DNA of 64,000 nucleotides. Origin: an uncultured Chloroflexia bacterium (GTDB taxonomy: Bacteria; Chloroflexota; Limnocylindria; Limnocylindrales; CSP1-4). Position numbers and translations under genes: made by a program. Positions 45 through 13,769 of the stretch are shown here, piece by piece (positions within the stretch are counted from its first letter, which is position 1; every line of letters begins with the position of its first letter). The stretch lies in the NCBI GenBank assembly GCA_963748625.1, contig CAVVJT010000002.1:1-64000 (forward strand), written 5' to 3'. The notes beneath the pieces are model-generated. The model made no database searches. It had not been told where the DNA came from and saw only the letters and a list, made by a program, of their open reading frames with translations.

Positions 45-1247
45 GTGCCCTCGCCCCAGCTGACCTCGGAACCCGCCTGTCCGCCGGCCACCGGTGAGCA
101 GCTGGTGGCCAGCACCCGGCGCCTTCGGGCCGTCCGCCGCTCCTTCGAGTCGATCGATGCGGCCACCTGGGACGCGCTCGCCGCCCGCAACCCGTGGGCC
201 ACCCCCTTCTCCGCCTGGGCCTTCCAGCGCGCGTGGTGGGACGGCTACGGCGAGAACGCCCACGAGGAGACGCTGGTTGCCGTCCCGGCTGACGGCCCCG
301 ACGACGCCGAGCCCGTCGCCATCATCCCGCTCATGCACCGCCACGAGGTGGAGCCCGGCGACCTGGAGCTCAGGACCACGATGCGCCACGCGGACGGCCT
401 CGTGCTGACGCCGGTCCCGCCGGACACGAAGGCCGTGTTCTTCGGCGCCTCCTACCACGCGGACTACGCCACGCTCCTCTGCGCGCCCGAGGACCTGGTG
501 GCCACCGCCGACGCCCTCGCCGACTACTGCGGCAGCATCGGCGACCCCGAGCACCCCAAGGAGTGGGACGCCGTGGACCTGCGGCGCCTGCGCTGCGGGG
601 ACCCGGCCGCGACCGCCCTCGCGACGGCGTTCGGCACGCGGGAGATGGCCCGCGGCTGGACGATGAACATCGAGCCCGAGGAGGTCTGCCCCGTGGCCAC
701 CCTCCCCGAGAACGCGGACATCGACACCTACCTCGGCACGCTGGGCAAGAAGGAACGCCACGAGATCCGGCGCAAGGTCCGCCGCGCGGAGGCCGCCGGC
801 GAGGTGGCCCTCACGGACTCCGCGGACCCGCTCGCAGACCTCGAGGCCTTCATCGACCTGCACCAGAAGCGCTGGGGCGCAAACGGCCTGTTCCCCGACG
901 GCCCGGGCGGCGCCCACAGCCGGGTGTTCTTCCGGCGCCTGTTCGAGCTGTTCCCGGCCGACGGCCCCCTGCGCCTCGCCTTCCTGACGGTGGGCGGCCG
1001 GCGGATCGCGGCCGGGGTGTCCTTCGAGACGGCCGACTCGATCTACTACTACAACGCCGGCGTGGACCCCGAGGCCCGCGAGCTCAGCCCGGGCGTGCTC
1101 ATGGTGGAGCGCTACGTGCGTCGCGCCCTCGAGACCGGGAAGCGGCGCATGGACTTCCTGCGCGGCGACGAGGGCTACAAGTACGAGTGGGGCTCCGTGG
1201 ACGAGCCAATCCAGCGCATCCTGGTCAGACGAACTGCACTTCGATGA
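45..1247 (+). CDS. GNAT family acyltransferase (CelD/BcsL-like, Acetyltransf_6 type)
   Basis: Motifs LGKKERHEIRRK, YYYNAGVD, SPGVL and DFLRGDEGYKYEWG. The stop overlaps the next start (ATGA). Confidence 0.8.
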   Translation: MPSPQLTSEPACPPATGEQLVASTRRLRAVRRSFESIDAATWDALAARNPWATPFSAWAFQRAWWDGYGENAHEETLVAVPADGPDDAEPVAIIPLMHRHEVEPGDLELRTTMRHADGLVLTPVPPDTKAVFFGASYHADYATLLCAPEDLVATADALADYCGSIGDPEHPKEWDAVDLRRLRCGDPAATALATAFGTREMARGWTMNIEPEEVCPVATLPENADIDTYLGTLGKKERHEIRRKVRRAEAAGEVALTDSADPLADLEAFIDLHQKRWGANGLFPDGPGGAHSRVFFRRLFELFPADGPLRLAFLTVGGRRIAAGVSFETADSIYYYNAGVDPEARELSPGVLMVERYVRRALETGKRRMDFLRGDEGYKYEWGSVDEPIQRILVRRTALR

Positions 1248-2524: not shown

Positions 2525-4004
2525 ATGCGCCTGACACTCGACCACCTGTGGATCGCAATCGCGGTGATGCTGCCCGCCCTCGTCGCGCTGCTCGTGCCGC
2601 TGCCCGCGGTGGACCTCGCGTACCAGGTGCGAGCCGGGAACCAGATCCTCGCGACCGGCGCCCTCCCAGCGGTGGACACCTGGACCTTCACGGTGGCAGG
2701 CACGCCGTGGGTGGACCAGCAGTGGCTCGTCGCAGGTGCTCCTGGCGCTCGGCTACAACCTGGGCGGCTGGGAGCTGCTGGCGGTGGCGCGGGCCGCGCT
2801 GGTGGCGCTCTCGGTGGGCCTGCTGGTCGCGGTGGCGATGGTGCGCGGCGCGCCCGCCCGCACGGCGTCGATCCTGGCGCTGGCCGCGTTCATGCTGATG
2901 GCCTCGGCGATGGCGCTCCGGCCGCAATTGGGTGGGATCGTCCTGTTCGCGGTGCTCCTGCTGCTGGTCGCCGCTCGGGAGCGGCACCCGCGTGCCTACC
3001 TCGCGGCACCGCTCGTCATCGCGCTCTGGGCGAACATCCATGGCAGCTTTGTCCTGGGTCCGCTGGTGCTGGGCTACGCGTGGGTGGAGGACCTCATCGC
3101 CGGGAAGCCGGGCGCCACGCGCTCGGTCATCGTCTTCGTCGCGGGCACGCTGGCGACGCTCGTCAACCCGTACGGCGCCGGCGTGTGGGCGTATGCGGCG
3201 GGCATCGGCGCCAACCCTGGCGTCACGCAGATGGTCACCGAGTGGCAGCGGACATCGCCGCTGCGGATGCCGGGCGCGCTGCTGTACCCGGCGGCGATCG
3301 CCGCCATCGTCATCCTGGTGCGCGGTCGATCGCGGGTGTCGGTGCCGGCCTGGGGGCTCGCCCTGGCGCTGACGCTGATGGCGCTGTGGGCGGAGCGAGG
3401 GGTCGCCTGGTGGGCGATGGGCATGGTGTACCTGCTGGGCGGCGTGCTGGCCGTGGAACCGGCGTCACGTGCAGCCGCCGTTCGCGCGACCGACGCGCAC
3501 GCCGAGGTCCCACCGCCCACCGCCGAGCCCGGGTTCTCGACGGAATACCTGCGGCAGGCCCGCGCCCGACGCGCGAGCCGTCTCAACGGCGCCGTCGTGG
3601 CGCTTCTTGGCATCCTGATCGTCGCGGCGCTGCCCTGGTGGCGCCCGCCTGACCCGCTGACCGGCCGCGTCGGCCTGCTGTCGTACGCCCCGTCAGGCCT
3701 CGCCGCCGCCGTCCGCGACAACGTCGACACCGGCCAGCGTGTGGTCGTCCCGCAGACGTGGGGCTCGTGGTTCGAGTTGATGGCGCCCCAGGCGTCGTAC
3801 TTCGTGGACTCCCGGTTCGAGCTGTTCCCGGCCTCGACCTGGGCCGACTACGCCGTGCTCGCCGCAGGCGGGGACGCTGCTGCAGCCATGCTCGACCGCT
3901 GGCAGGTGGACATGGTGGTCGTTCCGACGGGCACCGAGGCCCCGGCCGGGTGGTCGGAGCTGTACGCCGACGCCGACGGCGCCGTCCTCGTCCGGCAGGG
4001 CTAG
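2525..4004 (+). CDS. Multi-pass membrane protein, GT-C-like glycosyltransferase candidate (one frameshift near 2728)
   Basis: The N-terminal DLAYQVRAG...PWVDQQWL continues in another frame as SQVLLALGY...WANIHG...NPYG...DSRFELF. Many TM segments. Confidence 0.6.
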
Positions 4005-5077
4005 GAGGCGACGGTCACCCAGTAGCGCTCGGCCTTGCCGCCGGGCACGCTGCCGATGTCGCCCACGCGGGTCGCGAACTGGCGCACCGCCTCGGCCATG
4101 ACCTGCTCGCTGTCGAACAGCCGCTCCATCTGGCTCTCGTAGAGCGCGATGCCGCGGATCTTGCGCTCGATCACGTCGTGGATGTCCGCGAACTCCGCCT
4201 GGAGCGAGATGCCGTCCGGCATCGCCGCGAAGGAACCCGACGGCATGTCCGACAGGCGCCCGAAGTCCTCCCAGTACGCGTACGGGAAGTCCTCGTACAG
4301 CACGACTCGGCCGGTGTAGTCGGTGCCGGGCATCACCCATTTGCGGCTGTCCGCCAGCAGCGCCAGGCCGGCGTCACGGGCCAGCTGGTGGTCCACGTGC
4401 CCGCCGATGCCCATCGGCAGGTAGACGCGGGACGCCTCCAGGCGGGCGAGCTCGCGGCGCAGGAGGTCCACGGGGGCCGGGTCATCCGCGCGCGGCGCGC
4501 CGAGGAGCTGGTCGTCGCCCTCGTAGCCGCGGAAGACGGCATCGGGCAGGTCCAGCCAGACGAAGGAGACCTCGGCGAAGGCGGCGTAGCGCTCATCCTC
4601 GAGGCGTCGGGTGGCCATCGTGTCGCCCGCGTCCGCGGCGTCCAGGCGCTCGCTCGTGAGGACGGCGCCCTGTGTGGAGGTGTCGTCAACGAGGGGCTGG
4701 CCGGCCAGGGGCGTGTTGTGGATGTGCGCGCGGCGGTACCAGGAGGAGCGCTGCCAGAAGCTCTTGGCGGCGGCGTCGGCCTCGGCCTGGGTGGCGTCGA
4801 GGCCATCCTTGCTGGCCTGCCAGGGTGCGGCCGCCTCGTCGTTCGGATAGTCGGCGGCGAGGTGGGAGCGGTTGAATGCCTCAGTGGTGGGCCAGATCGC
4901 CTTGGAGCCGAATCCGAGGGCTTCACGCTGGTAGGGCGTGAGATCGTCCGCGTTCCCGGAGCCCGAGAACAGGGTCAGGATCGTGACGCTCTGGCCAAGC
5001 TCGCGCAGGCTCGCGATGAGCCCGCCGCAGGAGAGGGCGATGTCGTCCGGGTGCGGGGCAACAAAGACATGGGTCAT
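4001..5077 (-). CDS. PIG-L/LmbE family deacetylase
   Basis: VAPHPDD, RRLEDE, GGHVDH, YEDFPY and YESQ motifs. Confidence 0.85.
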   Translation of the reverse strand: MTHVFVAPHPDDIALSCGGLIASLRELGQSVTILTLFSGSGNADDLTPYQREALGFGSKAIWPTTEAFNRSHLAADYPNDEAAAPWQASKDGLDATQAEADAAAKSFWQRSSWYRRAHIHNTPLAGQPLVDDTSTQGAVLTSERLDAADAGDTMATRRLEDERYAAFAEVSFVWLDLPDAVFRGYEGDDQLLGAPRADDPAPVDLLRRELARLEASRVYLPMGIGGHVDHQLARDAGLALLADSRKWVMPGTDYTGRVVLYEDFPYAYWEDFGRLSDMPSGSFAAMPDGISLQAEFADIHDVIERKIRGIALYESQMERLFDSEQVMAEAVRQFATRVGDIGSVPGGKAERYWVTVAS

Positions 5078-5199
5078 GGCCTGCGGAGTATAGCCGGGCG
5101 GATTGCGCTCCTGAACAGGCGATCCGGCCTCCGCAGCACGACCAGCGCGGACCGTGTCGGCAGATCGGTCGCGGTGACCCCGATCAGCGTGGCGCCCGA

Positions 5200-5774
5200 T
5201 CAGCTCGGCGACGGGCTCGGCTCGATGGAGACGGACGGGGCCTCGGTCGCGGCGGGTGCGCTGGGGGCCAGGGTCACGATCGGCGTCGCCTCGGGCTTCG
5301 GCGTGGCGAGGGCGCCGGAGATGAGACCGGCGTGGCCGAAGAGCACCGCGTAGGCGAACAGCGCCACGAAGACGGCCACGCTCGCGATCACGAACCACTT
5401 CGAGAAGCGGTCGTCCACCTTGACGGCCGTATCCGCGATGGTGGGGGCGACCGGCGCGGCCTTGCCGACCGGGGCCTTCCCCTTGGCGCGGCGGCCGGCG
5501 GGGGCGGCAGCTCCAGCGACGGTCGCTGTGGTGTCGGCAGCGGACTGTCGCCTTCGGCTGCGTCGGCGGCGTCGGCGGGCGACCTCGTCGCCTTCGGCAT
5601 CGTCGACGGCATCGTCGACGGCGTCGGCATCGGCATCGGCATCGGCCTCGTCGCGCGGTGCACCTCGGCCTCGACACTCGACGGTGTCTCGGCGACGGTC
5701 TCGGGGGCGGCCTCGGGGTCCGCTGCGCCCTCGGTGGCAGCCGTGGCCTCCGGGTCGCGCTCCTGGTCGGTCAT
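5200..5774 (-). CDS. Hypothetical protein with an acidic low-complexity N-terminus, one TM helix and a Pro/Ser tail (frameshifted)
   Basis: ORFs 5388..5774 and 5200..5418 join into one plausible gene. GGAGAGG lies upstream. Confidence 0.45.
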
Positions 5775-5918
5775 GCGGGTGCTCGATCTCCTCTCCGCGG
5801 GCGCGCCTCCGGGCGCAGCCTCACGCGGGCGACAGTGTACCGACCGCGGGCGATCCTTCGCGAGGGACGGCGGCTATCGGTGCGGGAGTCGCCGCCCAGG
5901 CGCCGTGCGTGCTGCATG

Positions 5919-8067
5919 TCAGGCGTCGCGGACGGCCGGGACGACAAGGCCCGCAAGCCCCGCGGCCGCCGACAGGATGCCTGCCGCAAAGATCACCGGC
6001 TGCGGCCCGACCAGCGAGATCAGGACGCCGCCCAGGCCCATCGCCACCGACATTCCGCCGAACACCAGCGCGAACCGGAAGCTCACCACGCGACCCATGA
6101 GCTCGGGCGGGGTCCGCTCCTGGAACAACGTCTGGCTGGGGATGACGAAGGCCATGTTCGCGATGCCGCCGGCGAACATGATCAGCAGGACGAGCGGGAT
6201 GCTGTCCACGAGCCCCAGCGCCATCGCGCACAGGCCGAAGGCAGTGTACGCGGCGATGATCATCCGGCCCTTGCGGGCGCGGTTCGCGACCAGGCCCAGC
6301 GTGAAGCCGCCCACCAGGCTCCCGAGACCGATTGCCGTCTCCATGAACGCGTACGTGCCGCGATAGGCCTGGCCCGGGGCGTCGGTGATCTCCTTGGCCA
6401 GGATCAGGCTGGCCACCGTGAGGATTCCCAGGGAGAACTGGCCGGCCGTGCCCTGCAGCGTGTTCGCGAGCAGCACGGCCTCGTTGCGCAGGAAGGCCCA
6501 GCCGATGCGGAGATCCTCCACCACCGTGGCCGGGGCTTCGGGCGCCCCGTCCTCGTCCTCGTCGGCGCCGGGTGGCATGCGCATCGGCATCGAGGGGGCT
6601 GGCTGCACGAGCGGCCCGGGTCCGCCGGACGATCGGCGGCACCACGATCGTGGAGAGCAGCACGGCCGACGCGAGGTACGTGATCGCGTCGAACCAGAAG
6701 GCCAGCGCCAGCGACTGCGCCAGGAACACCACGAACAGGCCGGCAAGCGGGTAGAGGATGATGTCGGCGAGGGTCTCGGCCACCCACGTCGCGGAGTTGG
6801 CGGCCAGCAGGTCGTGCTGGTGGACGATCCGGGGCAGCACCGCCACGCGGGCGGGCCGGAAGAAGATCGACACCGTCGTGATCAGGAACACGAGCGGGTA
6901 GGCCAGCCAGACGTTGGTCATGATCGCCACCGGGATCAGCAGGACCAGGGCCGCCCGGAGGATGTCGGACACGACCAGGACCTGCTTCTGGTCCCAGCGG
7001 TCCACGAACGTGCCCGCGATCGGCGAGAAGAACAGGTTCGGGATCGTGCCCGCCAGGAACGTGAGCGCCACGGCCATCGGCGACGCCGTGATCTCGTAGA
7101 CGAAGGCCGCCAGCGCGACCTGGGTGATCCGGTCGCCGAAGAGGCTGATGACCTGGCCGATCCACAGGGCCGAGAACGAGCCGTTGGTCGCAAGCCTGAC
7201 GTACGGATGCTGGCGGGCCCGGAGCAGCCACGTGCGCTGGCGCTGGAGGACGGGTGCCGTGCCCCCGACCGGGATTGCGCCGGAGCCCGGTGCGGCCATC
7301 GCCATGGAACCGCCGCTCATCATCAGGGGCCGTTCCAGCGACACCGTCTCGTCGAAGGCCGCCGTGAGGCCGGTGCCCGAGCGGATCGAGATCCCGGGCG
7401 CGGCGGCGTCGGGCGCGTCCGGGCGGGGGAGAGCAATGGCTCCCGTGATCCCGCCACCGGCTCGGACGGTGCGGTCGTCGTCCTCGTTCTCGGCCCACTC
7501 GTCTCCCTTGGGCCCGCGGATCAGCGTCGCGAACAGGAAGAAGGCCAGCCCGGCGGTGAGGAAGATGTCGCCGATCGACGCCACGTTCTGCACGGGCCAG
7601 ATCGGGATGGGGATGATGTCGCCGAAGGCACCGAGCCGCAGCAGGAAGTCGACGGCGTTCGCGCTCTGCAGCGGCTGGTGCAGCACCGTGTTGATCTCGC
7701 CGGTCAGCCCCGAGGCGGCGTAGGCGGCCTCCCACACCGGCATCCGGCCCGCGTTCACCATGATCACGAGCGCGTTCATGGAGATGCCCACGAATGCGAG
7801 CGCCATGCCCGGGTACGTGCGGTTCGACCAGAGGACGTACAGGAGCATCCCGTACGCCAGCCCGAACAGCAGGATCCTCGGCAGCACCAGCGGCACCGCC
7901 GCCTCGATCGGTGCCACCAGCTGCAGCATCAGCTCCGTCCCGAAGCGGATGATCACCGCCAGGAACAGCAGGTTCAGGTGGCGCAGCCGGATCGAGGCGA
8001 GGTTCTCCAGCTTCCCGCCCAGCACGAGGCCGAGCACGAGGCCAGCGACGATCCCGCCGATCAGCAT
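5919..8067 (-). CDS. DUF5317-like membrane domain fused to an MFS transporter (frameshift near 6600)
   Basis: N-terminus GGKLENLASIRLR...NRTYPG...NALVIMVNAGRMPV...H...GDII...SIGDI, then a linker, then MFS motifs LWIGQVISLFGD and GTFVDRWDQK. The MFS C-terminal half is in ORF 5919..6746. Confidence 0.75.
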
Positions 8068-8104
8068 CGACCGGTCCCCTGGAGGGCCCCGAGGGCGTGG
8101 CCGC

Positions 8105-9595
8105 TCAGCGCGGGTCGGCGGCTGCGGGCGTCCCGGTGGCGCCGCCGGGCTCGGCCGGGGCCGGCGCGGTCTGCGTTGCGGGCGCGTGTGCCGCAACGGA
8201 CGCGGTGGTGCCGGGGGACGCGGGGGTGCCGGTGGATGCGGGGGTGCCGGGGGACGCGGGCCGGCTTGCATGCTGCGAGATGAGCGGGATCGGACGCGGC
8301 TGGACCGTGCGGCCGGGGTCGTTCACGTCCTCGGCCCAGCGGGTCTTCACGAACGCGTCCACCACCTTGGGGTCGAACTGGATCCCGGCGAACTTGCGCA
8401 GCTCCGCGACCGCCTGCTCGGCTGTGAGCGGCGTCATGCGGTACGGCCGCGCAGCGGTCATCGCCTCGAACGAGTCGGCCACGTGCAGAATCCGCGCGAG
8501 CGGCGGGATCTCGTCCCCGATGAGCCGGTCCGGGTAGCCCGAGCCGTTGTACCACTCGTGGTGGTGGCGGATGATCGGCAGCTCTGCGGAGAGCCGGCTG
8601 ACCTTCCCGATGATCTCGGCGCCCAGGACCGGGTGCGCGTTCATCATCATCCGCTCTTCCTTGTTGAGCTTCTCCTGCTTGAGCAGGACGTGATCGGGCA
8701 CGCCGATCTTGCCGACATCGTGGAGCAGGCCGCCCCACTCGAGCGCCTCAAGGTCCGCCTCGCCCAGGCGCATGATCCGCCCGATATCGCCCGAGATTTC
8801 CTTGACCCGCCACGAGTGGCGCCCGGTGAAGGGATCACGCCGGTCCACGGCGCCGGCAAGCGCGGTGATGGTCTCGGTGAACATCTCGCGCATCTCGGTG
8901 TAGTTCTGGTAGGCCAGGCGGACCATATAAAGCGGAATGCCGAACAAGGCCGCAGCCCACCATGCGACCGTCTCGTAGATGACCGCCATCAGCCATGCGA
9001 TCGGCGCTAGGCTGAGGTTGCTGGCCATCGTGCCGCGGGCCTCCGCAGCGAGGATAATCCGGGCATTCTGACCCGTGCGAAGGGCCACGGTTACTGCGGT
9101 CAGCCCGCCGTTCAGGGCCAGGAAGATGGCACCACCGACCATCGAGACGACCAGACCGATCGGATCGCTCGCCTCACGCCCCGGGACTCCAAGCGCCTGC
9201 ATCACCAGCCCTGCGATCACGACAGGTAGCACTACGCCCGCGTGGTTGGCCAGCGTGCCGTACCAAGGAACGCGACCGGTGATTTCGCGCACATCGAATG
9301 TGCCGAGAAGGCCCACCCATGCTCCCGCGGTCGGACCACCGAGAATGGTCGCTGCCATGACCGCAGCGACGGACACGGCAAAGTTGCCGCCGCGCGGCAT
9401 CTGGATTGGCATGGCACCCGCCACCAGCGACACCAGGGTCCAGAAGACAATGCCCGCCAGCACCGACCACTCGCCAAACACATCCGTGGCGAGAGCGATC
9501 GAGTTGGCGGGCGGAAACGTTGAGGTCGTGACGACGAGTGCAAGTGCACTCGCTGCCACGACCCCAGAAATGTAGAGCTTCAGGTTCCTCGGCAT
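8105..9595 (-). CDS. HD-GYP cyclic-dinucleotide phosphodiesterase with a multi-TM N-terminal sensor domain
   Basis: About 7-8 hydrophobic helices, then DPFTGRHS, LLHDVGKIG, HHHEWYNGSGYP, ADSFEAMT and RPYR. Confidence 0.9.
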   Translation of the reverse strand: MPRNLKLYISGVVAASALALVVTTSTFPPANSIALATDVFGEWSVLAGIVFWTLVSLVAGAMPIQMPRGGNFAVSVAAVMAATILGGPTAGAWVGLLGTFDVREITGRVPWYGTLANHAGVVLPVVIAGLVMQALGVPGREASDPIGLVVSMVGGAIFLALNGGLTAVTVALRTGQNARIILAAEARGTMASNLSLAPIAWLMAVIYETVAWWAAALFGIPLYMVRLAYQNYTEMREMFTETITALAGAVDRRDPFTGRHSWRVKEISGDIGRIMRLGEADLEALEWGGLLHDVGKIGVPDHVLLKQEKLNKEERMMMNAHPVLGAEIIGKVSRLSAELPIIRHHHEWYNGSGYPDRLIGDEIPPLARILHVADSFEAMTAARPYRMTPLTAEQAVAELRKFAGIQFDPKVVDAFVKTRWAEDVNDPGRTVQPRPIPLISQHASRPASPGTPASTGTPASPGTTASVAAHAPATQTAPAPAEPGGATGTPAAADPR

Positions 9596-9684
9596 CCGTC
9601 CTCAGTTCCCAGTGTGTACCGGGACTCTACCCGTTCCGCCTCCTCAGGGGAGCAACTAGAGTCTGAAGTCGGAGCAGCTGGCGC

Positions 9685-9774
9685 TTAGAAGCCCTTCAGC
9701 GATGCTCCCCCAGCCAGCGCCATAGCGGCGACTGCGCTGAGAGCGGCCAGGAGCCGCATGAGGCGATCCTTCAT
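9685..9774 (-). CDS. Small 29-aa putative signalling-peptide precursor MKDRLMRLLAALSAVAAMALAGGASLKGF
   Basis: Translated by hand. GGAGG lies 8 nt upstream of the ATG at 9774 and the TAA is at 9685-9687. Basic N-region, hydrophobic helix and short polar tail ending in an aromatic residue. Confidence 0.7.
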   Translation of the reverse strand: MKDRLMRLLAALSAVAAMALAGGASLKGF

Positions 9775-9831: not shown

Positions 9832-9982
9832 GCTCGTACCTCCTCGCGGCCCCCGTGTCCTAAGAACACGGAAACCGACCTGACTCGAAAGTCGGTCGGT
9901 TGCACTACTCGCTCCACCTCCACCCTAAGTGCCCAATTCAGGTGGGGGCATCAGCGCGTCCGAGCGTTCATTGATGGTGCCC

Positions 9983-10003: not shown

Positions 10004-10112
10004 GGGCGAACAATAGGTACCGGCAACCGCACCGGTCAATACGCAACCCTACCTATGCCGTGCGGTATATGCCAGATGCCACCAAACTGCACACAAACGG
10101 GTCGCGCGTCCC

Positions 10113-13100
10113 CTAGATGTTCGCTGAATGAGGGGGAACGTCGACGCCCATCTCTTGTCGCATCTAGGCGGCAGTAGTGGGCGTACTGCTCGGCGGCTGC
10201 CGCCTGCCTGCCACTGCCTTGTAGGCACTCAGCAGCTCCAGTTCGATGGCGTCGGCAGACGGGTCGATCGCAAGCAGGTCATGTGCGATGCCGGATCGCA
10301 CGCTCGAGGTCCTCGCTCGTCGGCAGATGCGAATAGCGAGCCTCGCCGGCCGCGAGGACTGCTGCGTGCAGGTTCTCTCGATAGGTCGTCGACCAGTCCT
10401 CGTACGCGAAGTCCAGTGCGTAGTTCCCCTGGTAGATGACCGATCAGTTCCTCTGCGGCCCCGCTGGCGTCGCCATCCGTCCGGCGCAGTACTCGCCAGC
10501 AGCGGCGGCTGGCGCAGTCAACGATCGCCGGGTTGAGGCTCGACGACATCGCCGTCGAACAGGACGTAGCCGGCACTCATGCCTTCCTTGTAGTCAGGTT
10601 CAAACACCCGGCGAAGGGAGTAGATCGTCTGGTGCAGTGAGTTGCTGCCGGTGTCGGGACTCAGGTCCGGCCAGAGTGCCTCGAGCGCCTCGTCCTTGGT
10701 GGCTGCCATGTCCGGACGCGAGGACAGGAAGCACAGCAGGGCTAGGACCTTCCTCCGCAGCCGCGGCCTCAGGCTCGTCCTTCCCATGAACACGTCGACA
10801 GGCCCGAGATCGCGTAGGTAGACCGGCTGGGCAAGGCGCTGAGTAATTCGCAGAGCTGATGGCCGTAGCGCCTTCGTCGGTCCAGCCTGAGCTCGGAGAA
10901 AGGAGGCATCTTCCGCAAACCCGATTTCGGCGAGCAGTTCAGCTGCAGCCCTGGTGCCTTCGCTGCGACCACCAATATGAAGGCGGAGAGCCGTGCGCCA
11001 GCGAGCGGGACGGAGTCGCGCCTCCGCAAACGCGATCGCCCGTGCGCCAGGGGTGAGTCGGTCGAACGCGGAAGCAATCTCCTCTGCCACCAATGAGAGC
11101 CCGAAGAGGTCAGCTGGCCCGAGTCGCTCGACCTCATCGCCGAAGGGTGCGTTGCCGGCGATGCGGGCAAGAATGGCTGCAATCTGGCGCGCTGGCCTCG
11201 AGTTCTGCGCCTCGGCTAGACGCAGAAGCTCTCCCAGCTCAGCGTCGAGATCCGGCGCCTTCCGTGCCATCGCGACGCGTGTACGCAAGAGTTGGGCTCG
11301 AAGTCTGCCCGCCGCATCTGGGCTGCGGGTCTCACGGAGCCGGTTGCACATCGCGGAGGCAGTGTCGAGGTCCCCGCGGCGCATGGCGACAACACCGCGG
11401 ACAAGGCTGAACACACCCATGTAGCCACCCGCCAGTCGGTCCGGTTCAACCAGTGCGAGGTAGCTCTCCGCCTCTTCGAAGGAGCCGAAGTCACTGTGGA
11501 CCCGCGCTGCCTCAAGAGCCAGCTCATCGCGCGCGAGAGGAGAAGCTGCGGACCGCTCCTCGCTCAGTTGGGCGGCGGCCTCCTCCAGTCGGCCCAGTTG
11601 GGCGAGTGCGATACATCGGGTCGCCGTCGCCGCGACGCGTTCCACGGAATCGCTCGACCGCCCTCCGAGGACCATCTCGGCCCGTGCAGCTTCCTTCAGG
11701 GCGTTGTCGGCGTCGCCCAGCCACGCAAGCGTTGCAGCGAGATTGAGGCGCGAGATGCCAGCGTATCGCTGGAGCCCCTCACGTTCCTGTTGCGCAGCGA
11801 GGTCGCGGAGCACATCCACGACTCGGTCGAGATCGCCCTCTTCGCTAGCCTCCCAGACCGTGACGGTGGCCTGAGCCACAAGCCTCTGACTGCCGCTGAG
11901 GTCACACTCTAGGGCCAGGCGAGCCGTGCGCACGCCCTCATCCGCGAATCCACCAACACTTAGGATTGAGGCCAAGTTCAGTAGGGTGAGACCTCGCGCT
12001 GGTCCGTCCCCCGCGCTTTCAACGGCTTGCCGCGCTCGCGAGGTCGCCTTCTCTGCGCTGCCACGATCCAAGTCGATGCGCGAGCGAAGAACAAGTGCGA
12101 TCGGCCTTGCTGGGTCGCCGGCATCCGGATCAAGAAACGCAACCACGGGCTCGAACGTGCCTTCCGCCAGGATCGCGTCGATGGCGTTGTCGATGACTCT
12201 CGCTGCGGCCTGAGGCTCCTTCGCCTGAACGTAATGCCAAGCGGCGCGTCTCCAGTCGACCCCGGACAGGCCGTTACCGACTCGGATGTGGAGCGCGCGG
12301 ACTGCCTCAAGGCCGATCTCGGCCTCGAGACGGGCGACCAGGAACTCGCGGACCAGGGGATGGAACCGGTGGGGTGACTCGCGGTCCGGGCGGTTGAGCA
12401 GGCCGAGGCTCTCGCAGTGGCGGATCAAGGCGACGACGTCGTCCAGCGGGCGCTCGTCCACGAGCACGGCCGTCTCTGGATCGACCGCCGTCAGCACCGC
12501 AGCCCGGGTCAGGAAGTGCTGGAGCTCTGTGGGCAGGCCCGCGAGCACCTCCTCGGCCAGGAACTCGTAGAGGTCGCCGCCGCTGGCGCTCAGGTGTGCG
12601 ACAAGGGTCCTGGGATCCGGGCCGCCCTGCTCGTCGAGGCTGGTGCGGACGAGGGTGAGGAGCGCGGCCCAGCCTTCGGTGCGCGCGAACAGGTCGGCGA
12701 GGACGTCACCCGGGAGCGGCCGATGGTAGGCATCGCGGAAGAGGCGCTCGGTCTCGTCGCGGTCGAAGCACAGCGCCTCGCCGCTGAGGCTGTCCACACC
12801 GCCGCGGGCGCGAACCTTGCCCATCGGGAGGGAGGGAGCCGATCGCGACGAGAGCACCACCGAGAAGCCGGGCACGGCCCGGTCCAGGAGCGCCCGGACG
12901 ATCGGCTCGGTGTCCGGGCAGCCATCGACGGCGTGGTAGTCATCGATGATCAACGTGAACCCGGTGGCACTGCGGGCGCCGAACTCGGCCATCTCGCGAG
13001 AGATCGTGGCGATGAGGTCGTGGCGCGTCGGCCCGCCGGGTCCGAGTGACTGGAGCATGTCGAACGTTTCGGGCGCGAAGGTCGGGTCCACCTCACGACC

Positions 13101-13361
13101 GCCCGCGACCAGGTGGCGGATGAACACCAGCCAGTCACGGTCATCCCGTTCGAGGCGGTACCAGGAGGTCAGGCGGCGGGTGTGGGTGGCCCAATCGGCG
13201 AGCAGGGTCGTCTTGCCGAAGCCGGCCTCGGCCACGATGAGGGCCACACGACCCGCGGCAGCCCGGTCAAGCCACGCGGTCAGGCGCTCGCGTGACAGCA
13301 TGTCAGCCCGGAGCGGCGGGCAGTGGAGCTTGGCCGGCTGCACCGGCAGCGGATTGGTCAT
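10113..13361 (-). CDS. Large MalT-like ATPase/TPR transcriptional regulator with a C-terminal SARP (wHTH-BTAD) module; several frameshifts in the last ~450 bp
   Basis: AKLHCPPLR..SRERL, Walker A AEAGFGKTT, IIDDYH, TEGWAA and RFHPLVREFL, then LALLCFL..EALWPD..LHQTIYSLRR. BTAD fragments DFAYEDW, AEQYAHY and MRQEMGVDVPP occur in shifting frames. Confidence 0.75.
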
Positions 13362-13769
13362 GTAGGCGCCAAGCCCGGCAAGCAGCATCGATCCGGCCAT
13401 GCCCGGTCCGACCGCCACGAGCCCACTGCCGCGATCCGCCCCTAGCGACGCCGGAGCCGGCGGATCGTCCGCCGCGTGCATCTCCGCGCTGCTCGTGCGT
13501 GACGATACGGCAGGCGTGCCCGGATGCGAGGGGGCCGGATGGCCCGCGGGAGTGCCTTCGTCGTCTGCGCCGCGTGCCTGTTCCTGGGGCCTCGGCCGTG
13601 CAGGCGATGCCGCAGGCGGCACGGATGACAGCGCGGCCGGGCCGCGGGTGGATGCAGGGATGGAGCGACTGGGACTGGGCATGTCCGGCATCGTGCCGGG
13701 CGGCACTCAACGCGGACTTATGCGTCCGCCGAGCACCTGTGGACAAGGAGCGCGTTGGGTTCCTGGCGG

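Follow-up and report, generated by a model that had tools for sequence, protein, structure and literature searches.

Introduction

In the Agr cassette, a peptide precursor (AgrD) is accompanied by a membrane peptidase (AgrB), whose conserved residues are His and Cys, and by a membrane receptor (AgrC); short precursors are also used in systems of the SHP and ComS type. Fusions of a peptidase to a transporter are known from the C39-peptidase ABC exporters, which serve double-glycine peptides. The signal peptidase II LspA (structures 5DIR and 6RYO/6RYP) is a protein of four helices with two catalytic Asp residues in the motifs G-N-x-x-D-R ... V-x-D-F and F-N-x-A-D, and its substrates are prolipoproteins with a lipid-modified Cys at the +1 position of the lipobox. 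For most HD-GYP phosphodiesterases, and for those with a MASE9 domain especially, we know of no identified signal. The prototype of the MASE9-HD-GYP proteins is TM1467 of Thermotoga maritima. The paper on MASE9 favors a ligand bound inside the membrane; the passages of it consulted name no ligand, no DUF5317 and no small-peptide partner (bioRxiv 10.1101/2021.11.05.467447).

Here we describe an operon in a window of 64,000 nucleotides (the whole stretch of DNA analyzed) in which, as in the Agr cassette, a tiny precursor-like gene adjoins genes for a polytopic membrane protein of about 190 aa, DUF5317, and for a putative polytopic membrane receptor. DUF5317 is a constant member of a conserved module at the membrane, and together with the peptide and the HD-GYP protein it may belong to a peptide signaling system that has not been described before. 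Our literature searches, some of which gave only listings or the openings of abstracts, surfaced no paper describing such a module.

Results

Operon layout

The operon runs on the minus strand from a c-di-GMP-II riboswitch through a 29-aa peptide and a MASE9-HD-GYP protein to a DUF5317-MFS_3 fusion. Its features are as follows:

10010..10039, minus strand: promoter-like site, two hexamers spaced by 18 nt, some 40 nt 5' of the aptamer (consensus scan, weak)
9886..9970, minus strand: c-di-GMP-II riboswitch aptamer, operon leader (Rfam RF01786)
9685..9774, minus strand: small ORF, 29 codons plus stop (tblastn, ribosome-binding site, codon pattern)
8105..9595, minus strand: MASE9-HD-GYP, 496 aa, predicted membrane-sensor c-di-GMP phosphodiesterase (Pfam)
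5919..8067, minus strand: DUF5317-MFS_3 fusion gene, whole (ORFs 8271..5821 and 6746..5919, Pfam, homologues)
7498..8067, minus strand: DUF5317 domain, residues 1-190 (Pfam PF17248, AlphaFold2, conservation, loop charges)
7186..7497, minus strand: linker of about 105 residues, low complexity, from DUF5317 to the first MFS helix (no Pfam match; variable among homologues)
6628..7185, minus strand: MFS_3 N-terminal half, same frame as DUF5317 (MFS_3 E 3.2e-14, MFS_1 E 2e-11)
6545..6628, minus strand: +1 frame-change zone in the variable central MFS loop (tblastn segments)
5919..6544, minus strand: MFS_3 C-terminal half in the other frame, including the stop codon (MFS_1 E 2.9e-11, MFS_3 E 8.7e-6 on ORF 6746..5919)

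The promoter-like site is weak, one site being found by the consensus scan against 0.4 expected from shuffles. The aptamer matched RF01786 over its full length (model positions 1-84 of 84, E 2.4e-13), reaching 65 bits where the gathering score is 53.5; at its 3' end, 111 nt separate it from the start codon of the small ORF. Rfam detected the same aptamer in six of seven related loci, and an nhmmer profile built from seven sequences found it in 50 of 60, the 10 misses all being loci without upstream DNA; compensatory changes are visible among seven aligned copies. In 19 metagenome loci, no c-di-GMP riboswitch was found at the Rfam gathering score.

In Pfam, the HD-GYP protein matches HD_5 (E 6.3e-39, 133.9 bits) and HD (E 3.5e-22), and also MASE9, where its 26 bits exceed the cut-off of 24.3. 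A MASE9-HD-GYP gene stands 5' of the fusion in 57/60 related loci, the other three being truncated, and the same architecture was found in all five tested HD-GYP genes that adjoin distant DUF5317 genes. In 13 of 30 other Chloroflexota loci a BTAD regulator adjoins DUF5317, and the HD-GYP N-termini that were read there (L075 and L083) have PAS or GAF instead of MASE9. MASE9 is therefore not a universal partner of DUF5317, which counts against the scheme proposed below.

The DUF5317 domain

An earlier note on this DNA had proposed a DUF5317-like domain with two membrane-edge Asp residues. The assignment was borne out by Pfam (PF17248, E 4e-25, 89 bits with the cut-off at 25, covering model positions 2-150 of 151), and in the whole-genome scan the match reached 94.2 bits at 7534-7992, far beyond chance. 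The motifs lie where that note had placed them, on the minus strand, in a gene that starts at ATG 8067, shortly 3' of the HD-GYP stop codon at 8105: N-R-x-x-P-G (residues 82-87) at 7824-7807, N...N-x-G-x-M-P-V (residues 98-111) at 7776-7735, and the segment with both Asp residues (148-173) at 7626-7549, with D150 encoded at 7620-7618 and D167 at 7569-7567. Conservation was scored on 101 domains of less than 70% mutual identity, chosen out of the 305 full-length domains that a set of 408 proteins contained. Of the 101, 98% have D150 and 97% have D167, and N82, N98, N105, M109, P110, and S164 are each present in 97-100%. Both Asp residues are also invariant in 19 sequences of a distant DUF5317 subfamily. 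The family also gave matches in control scans of Thermotoga maritima and Thermus thermophilus, and its named matches include Thermosediminibacter and Caldanaerovirga.

The AlphaFold2 model (pLDDT 91.4, pTM 0.85) has five helices (2-15, 31-51, 61-81, 88-104, and 165-183) and four short strands (109-112, 130-133, 150-154, and 161-164). The mean number of Lys and Arg residues per sequence is 2.73 in loop 19-30 and 1.20 in loop 82-87, against 0.19 in loop 52-60; these charges indicate an N-out, C-in topology, and both Asp residues would thus lie at the outer edge of the membrane, in agreement with the membrane-edge position proposed earlier. The linker at 7186..7497 would, by inference, be cytoplasmic. 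The domain had no match in the PDB by sequence at E<=10, an ESM Atlas feature search excluding PF17248 clusters returned no usable match, the Atlas itself having no structure of this protein, and no paper found by searching for DUF5317 and PF17248 mentions DUF5317.

Comparison with LspA

The same note had likened the domain to an SPase II-type peptidase and had suggested a structure and profile comparison with LspA; run here, the comparison left the resemblance faint and not established. No match to PF01252 (Peptidase_A8) was found at E<=0.01, and neither model had a Foldseek match in the PDB at E<=0.001 (the best E values being 3.4 with model 1 and 2.2 with model 2). The hhalign probability was 12.7% with an LspA alignment of 20 sequences and 7.7% / 1.1% with one of 49. 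The alignment at 1.1%, itself below threshold, sets D150 and D167 on the two catalytic Asp residues of LspA in surroundings that differ in motif; its score of 17.6 narrowly exceeds the highest of 30 column shuffles (16.7) and the score of a reversed control (15.2). For one model, LspA structures ranked 12 and 13 of 48,161 chains. The helix equivalence given by two hhalign segments differs from that of the structural alignment ranges.

A canonical LspA is encoded elsewhere in the genome (E 5.2e-34), and in f2, a family of the same order with small genomes, LspA was present in 8/8 genomes and DUF5317 in 0/2. The LspA catalytic motifs are visible in LspA alignment A2. Membership in the GxGD Peptidase A24 family (prepilin peptidase, PF01478) was rejected, with an hhalign probability of 0.09% against 13 A24 sequences from relatives.

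The MFS fusion

The fusion to an MFS transporter that the earlier note had read from the sequence is real, in that the same ORF runs on from DUF5317 into MFS_3/MFS_1, with the caveat that the second MFS half is out of frame. Both halves match the PF05977/PF07690 profiles, but in two reading frames in this assembly: the tblastn segment in frame 1 ends at 6628 and that in frame 2 begins at 6545. Over 208 residues, the C-terminal half shares 84% identity with the protein from L001 (tblastn). Intact relatives of the fusion have 700-750 aa; three homologues (P0122-P0124, 725-747 aa, 81-82% identity) have both MFS halves in one frame, and an intact frame is found in the same-genus genome G079 (733 aa) and in L001. 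The exact base of the indel is not resolvable by DNA alignment to L001, the MFS loop being too divergent. Contigs from public reads did not show an indel in 6545-6628, where these reads come from relatives at low depth; the best public sequencing run contains only 0.20 of the sampled words. The fusion gene may be inactive in this assembly, given its frameshifted MFS half.

Such fusions, which that note had suggested counting, are common in the class. Among proteins of 350-2000 aa, 1139 scored at E<=0.001, and 119 of the best 120 of these 1139 carry DUF5317 together with MFS families. Of the named MFS proteins, EntS, macrolide efflux pumps, and LplT come nearest, each scoring far under its cut-off. 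The DUF5317-MFS_3 combination also occurs in Actinomycetota (L129/L165 and L167), adjoining MASE9-HisKA or GGDEF-EAL genes. In L155-L158, a single ORF joins HD_5 and MFS_3 and is followed by DUF5317, and in L154-L156 and L158 an AI-2E family transporter is encoded 3' of DUF5317. It should be noted that most members of the DUF5317 family have no transporter fusion.

The small peptide

The product of the small ORF has a basic N-terminus, a single hydrophobic helix, a lipobox-like LAGG without Cys, and a tail of six residues ending in Phe; the precursor-like peptide with an LAGG junction on which the earlier note had built is thus present, at 9774..9685, and its linkage to DUF5317 is tight and extends across phyla. 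The small ORF is preceded by a strong ribosome-binding site, GGAGG, which relatives conserve, and tblastn found the peptide at the same position in 50/60 related loci (all 10 misses without upstream DNA). Pairwise codon comparisons gave 5783 synonymous and 3951 non-synonymous differences, the C-terminal motif being kept through synonymous changes; judged from these codon patterns, that motif is under constraint at the protein level. The peptide had no family match in Pfam or NCBIfam.

We also applied a filter comprising a ribosome-binding site, a basic N-terminus, a hydrophobic window of 15 residues, and a tail of 3-12 residues. Around stand-alone DUF5317 genes, 23 matches were found in 365,330 bases from 76 loci, 15 of them with the strict motif; the whole genome of 4,626,308 bases, used as a control, also gave 23 matches, of which one, the small ORF itself, has the strict motif. 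A narrower C-terminal pattern had found no LAGG-type peptides in L072-L102, where the broader filter then detected them, and manual reading added peptides 5' of the HD-GYP gene in L155-L158, L160, and L162. All 80 metagenome loci of a distant DUF5317 subfamily have a neighboring HD-GYP gene, and 48 of the 80 have a strict-motif peptide. Stand-alone DUF5317 genes thereby have similar peptides and HD-GYP genes beside them in other Chloroflexota, in two loci of Actinomycetota, and in these metagenome loci. Among 31 short Actinomycetota loci only two had a peptide match, which counts against processing.

A lipobox-like pattern with Gly at the position of the Cys ([LIVMAF][AGST][AGS]G, 2-11 residues from the end) occurs in 89 of 101 distinct peptides and in 3/23 control peptides of the own genome, one of these being the small ORF; none of the peptides inspected has a Cys at the junction. 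One locus (L159) carries two identical peptide genes in tandem.

Tail variation and covariation

One clade (39 peptides, 36 unique DNA sequences, 26 distinct tails) combines a conserved leader with a variable tail. Over leader codons 1-24 we counted 1690 synonymous and 620 non-synonymous pairwise differences, and over tail codons 25-28 the counts were 227 and 1284, respectively. A conserved leader with a hypervariable tail of 4-5 residues is a pattern of the processing type. In the class to which the window belongs the tail is conserved rather than variable, which we count against the processing reading.

Across 35 loci, the MASE9 region has a mean pairwise identity of 63.7%, as compared with 86.8% in HD-GYP and 82.7% in DUF5317. 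Once HD-GYP identity has been regressed out, tail similarity is correlated with the identity of MASE9 (r 0.205, reached in 1 of 2000 permutations) but not with that of DUF5317 (r -0.012). The tail thus covaries weakly with MASE9, a pattern of the receptor type, in a comparison from which shared ancestry was not fully removed.

Discussion

Our preferred reading, to which we give a probability of roughly 0.4, makes DUF5317 the processing enzyme of the peptide, acting on the outside of the membrane, and MASE9 the sensor of the product. The cut would fall at the Cys-less, lipobox-like LAGG junction and would use the Asp pair D150/D167, aided by N98, N105, and S164. Such a mechanism would be LspA-like, with common descent from LspA unproven. 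In or at the membrane, MASE9 would presumably sense either the C-terminal 6-7-mer released by the cut or the cut peptide as such; it would then control the hydrolysis of c-di-GMP, with the riboswitch completing a feedback loop. MFS_3 might move the peptide or the leftover leader, a conjecture as to both direction and cargo. By the topology we infer, the peptide tail should already be outside and would need no exporter, which makes the logic of an exporter, and with it the coupling of processing to export suggested in the earlier note, uncertain. Beside the linkage of the peptide to DUF5317, the leader and tail pattern, the covariation with MASE9, and the faint likeness to LspA, two observations count in favor of this processing and sensing scheme: By the same topology, the polar cluster conserved in DUF5317 and the peptide's junction motif would both face the outside, and permuted fusions tie DUF5317, MFS_3, and the sensor proteins together.

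These fusions, which link all three large proteins, would also suit an arrangement without proteolysis, in which DUF5317 and the peptide are stable, non-catalytic subunits of a sensory complex with MASE9, and with MFS_3 where present. We hold this to be quite possible. Such a complex might be a transport-coupled or intramembrane co-sensor, comparable with the small-protein and transporter partners of intramembrane-sensing kinases, and its Asp/Asn cluster would bind a ligand, a cation, or a proton instead of cutting. DUF5317 matches no protease family, and the small-residue junction together with the often basic, Trp- or Phe-containing tail, which we count against processing, would suit helix packing and the interfacial anchoring of an uncleaved micro-protein, as would the conservation of the tail in the class of the window. 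The MASE9 paper likewise favors intramembrane ligand binding (bioRxiv 10.1101/2021.11.05.467447). However, a conserved leader with a hypervariable tail of four residues would be unusual for a structural subunit, and the tandem identical peptide genes of L159 and the near-invariance of both Asp residues across wide divergence also argue against it.

We consider it improbable that DUF5317 is an accessory for the transport of a non-peptide cargo (a lipid, a siderophore-like compound, or an ion), with the small ORF acting only as a regulatory leader or micro-protein without direct contact to DUF5317. The named MFS relatives, distant as they are, and the AI-2E family transporters following DUF5317 would fit such a role, as would the position of the small ORF directly behind a riboswitch; yet most DUF5317 genes outside the class have no MFS nearby and do have the peptide and an HD-GYP gene, the metagenome loci retain the peptide where no riboswitch reaches the gathering score, and the C-terminal motif of the peptide appears constrained as protein. 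We judge it very improbable that DUF5317 is genuinely homologous or paralogous to LspA and acts on lipoproteins as a signal peptidase II. The structural ranks obtained with one model, the sub-threshold alignment of Asp with Asp, and alignment scores just above the shuffled and reversed controls point in this direction, but Pfam gave no match to PF01252, the hhalign probabilities were 13% or lower, Foldseek found nothing with either model, the modeled fold has five helices and an N-out topology where LspA has four helices, the genome already has a canonical LspA, f2 genomes keep LspA and lack DUF5317, and the linked peptides have Gly where a lipid-modified Cys is required.

In its widest form, the processing reading would make DUF5317 the founder of a novel membrane aspartyl peptidase family, perhaps distantly related to LspA but no longer dependent on a lipidated Cys. 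It would mature LAGG-type precursors of 25-47 aa to peptides of 4-7 residues, the long-sought ligands of MASE9, in a widespread signaling system that diversifies in a pherotype-like manner and acts directly on c-di-GMP turnover in Chloroflexota, Actinomycetota, and other bacteria; in Limnocylindria-like Chloroflexota this system would be under the control of a c-di-GMP-II riboswitch and fused to an MFS. We regard this wide form as rather doubtful. What the linkage itself offers is a tiny genome-encoded peptide, with its defined junction motif, as candidate for the ligand or substrate, two candidate catalytic residues, and a read-out in c-di-GMP hydrolysis. If the proposal is true, a peptide signal between cells or from the cell envelope would join c-di-GMP control in several poorly studied phyla, and the membrane proteases would gain a new family whose active site follows the logic of LspA; if it is wrong, the trio of peptide, DUF5317, and MASE9 still marks a membrane complex worth solving.

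Comparison with known systems

With LspA, DUF5317 shares its small size, its polytopic nature, and two conserved Asp residues at the predicted outer edge, one of them starting the last helix, and the L-A-G motif of the linked peptide, lipobox-like, ends a signal-like helix with an N-in orientation. It differs from LspA in its five modeled helices, as against four, and its N-out topology, in its first Asp, which lies in a strand 45 residues past helix 4 rather than at a helix end, and in the +1 residue of the peptide, which is Gly and not a lipidated Cys. The C39-peptidase ABC exporters resemble the fusion in that a putative processing domain is N-terminal to a transporter and the precursor has Gly-Gly at the junction of leader and tail. 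In the fusion, however, the transporter is an MFS protein, and DUF5317 is membrane-embedded with Asp residues, unlike the cytoplasmic Cys protease of the C39 systems, and mostly occurs without a fused transporter.

Beyond the gene arrangement described at the outset, the Agr-like traits are found in one clade only: a conserved leader, a variable mature end, and a putative receptor domain that varies alongside. The module differs from Agr in having no match to the AgrB, AgrC, or AgrD families, in conserving Asp, Asn, and Ser where AgrB has His and Cys, in its output, an HD-GYP phosphodiesterase (GGDEF or HisKA in some loci) instead of a kinase-regulator pair, and in the riboswitch that precedes the operon. 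A known counterpart of the predicted sensor is the MASE9-HD-GYP prototype, which has the same architecture as the gene at 8105..9595, and to which the present analysis adds the linked DUF5317 and peptide as candidate partners.

The DUF5317–MFS Fusion and Its Distribution

The DUF5317 domain lies in a minus-strand ORF (8271..5821), the true start of which is the ATG at 8067, 38 nt past the stop of the upstream gene, and which runs on into MFS_3/MFS_1 in Pfam searches.

8067..7498, minus strand: DUF5317 domain, residues 1-190 (Pfam DUF5317, E 4e-25)
7620-7618, minus strand: D150, first conserved Asp of DUF5317
7569-7567, minus strand: D167, second conserved Asp of DUF5317
6746..5919, minus strand: ORF with the second half of the MFS, in a reading frame different from that of DUF5317

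When aligned to the window, the protein of the closest relative (locus L001) follows frame 1 as far as 6628 and frame 2 starting at 6545; a +1 change is therefore placed in the variable central MFS loop, within which its exact base is not placeable. Public sequencing runs contain only relatives of this stretch. The overlapping long same-strand ORFs 2525-3652 and 2736-4004 (window 2525-4004, plus strand) may represent a further gene broken by a shift of frame, in which case assembly indel errors would be favored as the source of the MFS frameshift.

The fusion described in the earlier note is genuine, not an artefact: 1139 proteins of 350-2000 aa reach E<=0.001, and among the best 120 listed, 119 (~700-750 aa) combine DUF5317 with MFS families. 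Within the class of the window (families f1 and f3), DUF5317 was found in 30/30 other sampled genomes; most have it in an open frame between 610 and 753 aa long, among them a same-genus genome (733 aa). Elsewhere in the phylum it is mostly stand-alone. A match was found in 92 of 301 genomes overall (including one unpublished genome, G227), and in 101 of 251 Actinomycetota genomes (including nine unpublished ones), where DUF5317-MFS fusions likewise occur (loci L129/L165 and L167). The literature searched held no mention of DUF5317 or PF17248.

Conserved Residues, Topology, and the Relation to LspA

The motifs cited in the earlier note are present, including both Asp residues. Conservation was assessed in 101 domains mutually <70% identical, drawn from 305 full-length domains among 408 proteins: G18, G94, and N98 are invariant, N82, N105, G107, M109, P110, S164, G166, and G173 are retained in 96-99%, and D150 and D167 in 98% and 97%, respectively. 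A distant subfamily of 19 sequences shares the same conserved residues, all invariant.

AlphaFold2 models of the window's domain (pLDDT 91.4, pTM 0.85) and of a distant stand-alone DUF5317 (pLDDT 92.3, pTM 0.86) both have five helices, with four short strands separating helices 4 and 5. Judging from loop charges, residues 105-164 lie outside and loops 19-30 and 82-87 on the inner side, which agrees with a cytoplasmic linker into the MFS; by this topology, the conserved Asn/Asp/Ser cluster is on the outer side.

The proposed resemblance to LspA fared less well. DUF5317 has no sequence match in the PDB, Foldseek returned no match with either model, and LspA was absent from the top 50 when the window's model was compared with 48,161 chains by VIA-align. 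With hhalign, DUF5317 against LspA from the same genome and relatives reached 12.7% probability, with only the N-terminus aligned, and the 101 DUF5317 against 49 LspA sequences gave two local alignments: residues 6-31 on LspA 80-104 (7.7%, score 23.8) and residues 140-177 on LspA 102-140 (1.1%, score 17.6). The second aligns D150 and D167 with the two catalytic Asp of LspA. Best scores of 30 column-shuffled LspA alignments were 9.9-16.7, and the reversed alignment scored 15.2. Each of these signals alone is in the range of noise, yet all fall on a target named beforehand; we read them as a faint resemblance that may be real, with homology not established. Kinship with Peptidase A24 was rejected (hhalign 0.09%).

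The Operon Upstream of the Fusion

Upstream of the fusion and on the same strand lies the rest of its operon:

9970..9886, minus strand: c-di-GMP-II riboswitch (65 bits vs a gathering score of 53.5), 111 nt upstream of the small ORF
9774..9685, minus strand: small ORF of 29 codons with a strong ribosome-binding site, 90 nt upstream of the MASE9-HD-GYP gene
9595..8105, minus strand: MASE9-HD-GYP gene (Pfam)

The MASE9-HD-GYP gene is found in 57/60 related loci, the remaining 3 being truncated, and the small ORF, which encodes a peptide with a lipobox-like, Cys-less LAGG junction, occurs at the same position in 50/60. Its C-terminal motif is preserved through synonymous changes, its tail is conserved within the window's own class, and it is the sole match in the whole genome to the strict motif of our peptide filter, which takes a ribosome-binding site, a basic N-terminus, a 15-residue hydrophobic window, and a 3-12-residue tail. 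The riboswitch was found in the same 50 loci; a promoter-like site lies immediately ahead of it, and no terminator-like site was found between aptamer and small ORF. Given this position, the operon for a c-di-GMP phosphodiesterase is itself under c-di-GMP control. An RNA-library contig spanning 9551-9772 with one difference gives a weak hint of transcription.

Several features surround these genes. A short conserved noncoding motif follows the small ORF stop (window 9660-9684, minus strand); it occurs in most related loci (L002-L060, seen in 25-nt flanks), with a variant in the window and L001. Upstream of the operon, 10518-13706 (minus strand) encodes a 1062-aa protein that looks like a STAND-type regulator, judging from weak AAA_16, TPR-like, and Trans_reg_C matches below or near cut-offs. 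Downstream of the fusion lies a PIG-L family deacetylase-like gene (4001-5677, minus strand); similar DNA follows in 38/71 loci, which gives no more than a rough indication that synteny is conserved. Among the Actinomycetota loci, L140 and L151 likewise have PIG-L beside DUF5317.

Neighbors of DUF5317 outside the Window's Class

We surveyed 1.5-kb flanks of 30 stand-alone DUF5317 genes from other Chloroflexota.

Genes near stand-alone DUF5317 (30 loci)
HD-GYP domain (tblastn): 19/30
HD/HD_5 ORF (Pfam): 13/30
BTAD or SARP-type regulator: 13/30
MFS_3: 5/30

Four of the five MFS_3 loci encode HD_5 and MFS_3 in a single upstream ORF of ~845 aa; a small LAGG-type peptide gene precedes this ORF and DUF5317 follows it, and L155, L156, and L158 (3/4) were seen to carry a gene for an AI-2E family transporter after DUF5317. 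Seven Chloroflexota loci have a ~90-aa ORF directly after stand-alone DUF5317 that matches the Os1348 family, NHLP clan (NF038399), and Frankia_peptide (PF14407), so that small genes of two kinds adjoin DUF5317 at these loci.

HD_5-MFS_3 ORFs (membrane N-terminus, HD-GYP, and complete MFS_3)
L155:6472-9009, minus strand
L156:3358-5898, plus strand
L157:6486-9017, minus strand
L158:6519-9053, minus strand

NHLP-clan ORFs of ~90 aa
L079:1181-1450, minus strand
L080:1998-2270, plus strand
L081:2010-2294, plus strand
L083:1172-1444, minus strand
L086:2058-2327, plus strand (alone of the seven above cut-offs)
L093 and L094

Among 31 Actinomycetota loci (two from unpublished genomes), an HD/HD_5 neighbor was found in 8, and MASE9 in 4, either joined to HisKA or GGDEF or cut short by the end of the locus.

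Small Peptides beside DUF5317 and the Leader/Tail Contrast in One Clade

The peptides beside DUF5317/HD-GYP are built alike. Their N-terminus is basic and leads into a single helix; small residues, including a Gly that never varies, form the junction to a short tail, in which Trp is frequent. In 365,330 bases the filter gave 23 matches, 15 of them to the strict motif, in 15/30 Chloroflexota and 2/31 Actinomycetota short loci; extra peptides upstream of HD-GYP were spotted by eye, and L159 encodes two identical tandem copies after a c-di-GMP-II-GAG riboswitch. A distant DUF5317 subfamily is represented by 80 metagenome loci: HD-GYP is adjacent in 80/80, MASE9 was present on 5/5 HD-GYP proteins tested, and a strict-motif peptide was found in 48/80, many misses being cut off upstream. 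A lipobox-like sequence whose +1 residue is Gly occurs in 89/101 distinct peptides vs 3/23 of an own-genome control.

Peptides of a second type, with the junction L-T-S-G and then an aromatic residue, are encoded immediately after DUF5317 and not ahead of HD-GYP:

~4120-4235, plus strand: second peptide type in L236, L245-L247, L249, L251, L254, and L263

raiA RNA motifs (RF03072, 170-175 bits) precede the peptide gene by ~1.5 kb in 8/19 scanned metagenome loci, probably as unrelated synteny:

~210-576, plus strand: raiA RNA motifs in L191, L198, L204, L218, L233, L242, L259, and L261

The largest metagenome clade comprises 39 peptides, all of that type from the general filter. Their 24-residue leader is nearly invariant and the tail takes 26 forms. 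It should be noted that the collecting pattern fixed much of the leader, so that only the synonymous/nonsynonymous contrast carries weight: pairwise codon differences are 1690 synonymous vs 620 nonsynonymous in the leader and 227 vs 1284 in the tail. In 35 of the clade's loci, DUF5317 and the HD-GYP domain both vary far less than the MASE9 region. After regression on HD-GYP identity, MASE9 identity correlates with tail similarity (r 0.205, permutation p ~0.0005, relatedness only partly controlled); in the same test, DUF5317 identity showed no such correlation.

Possible Roles of the Module

These observations fit a module in which DUF5317 would act on the peptide at its conserved leader and junction, and MASE9 on the tail. 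The available portion of the MASE9 description (bioRxiv 10.1101/2021.11.05.467447) names neither a ligand nor DUF5317 or small-peptide partners. For DUF5317, we tentatively favor a role in which its Asp pair would cleave the peptide on the outer side of the membrane (probability about 0.4). The main rival, which we hold to be a serious but less probable candidate, involves no catalysis: the peptide would be a stable subunit of a membrane complex. The earlier note had coupled processing to export through the MFS, a role that is uncertain: on the predicted topology no exporter is needed for the tail, and the majority of the DUF5317 family are without an MFS. Cleavage by DUF5317, as favored here, would be LspA-like in its logic, with a lipobox that lacks the Cys.
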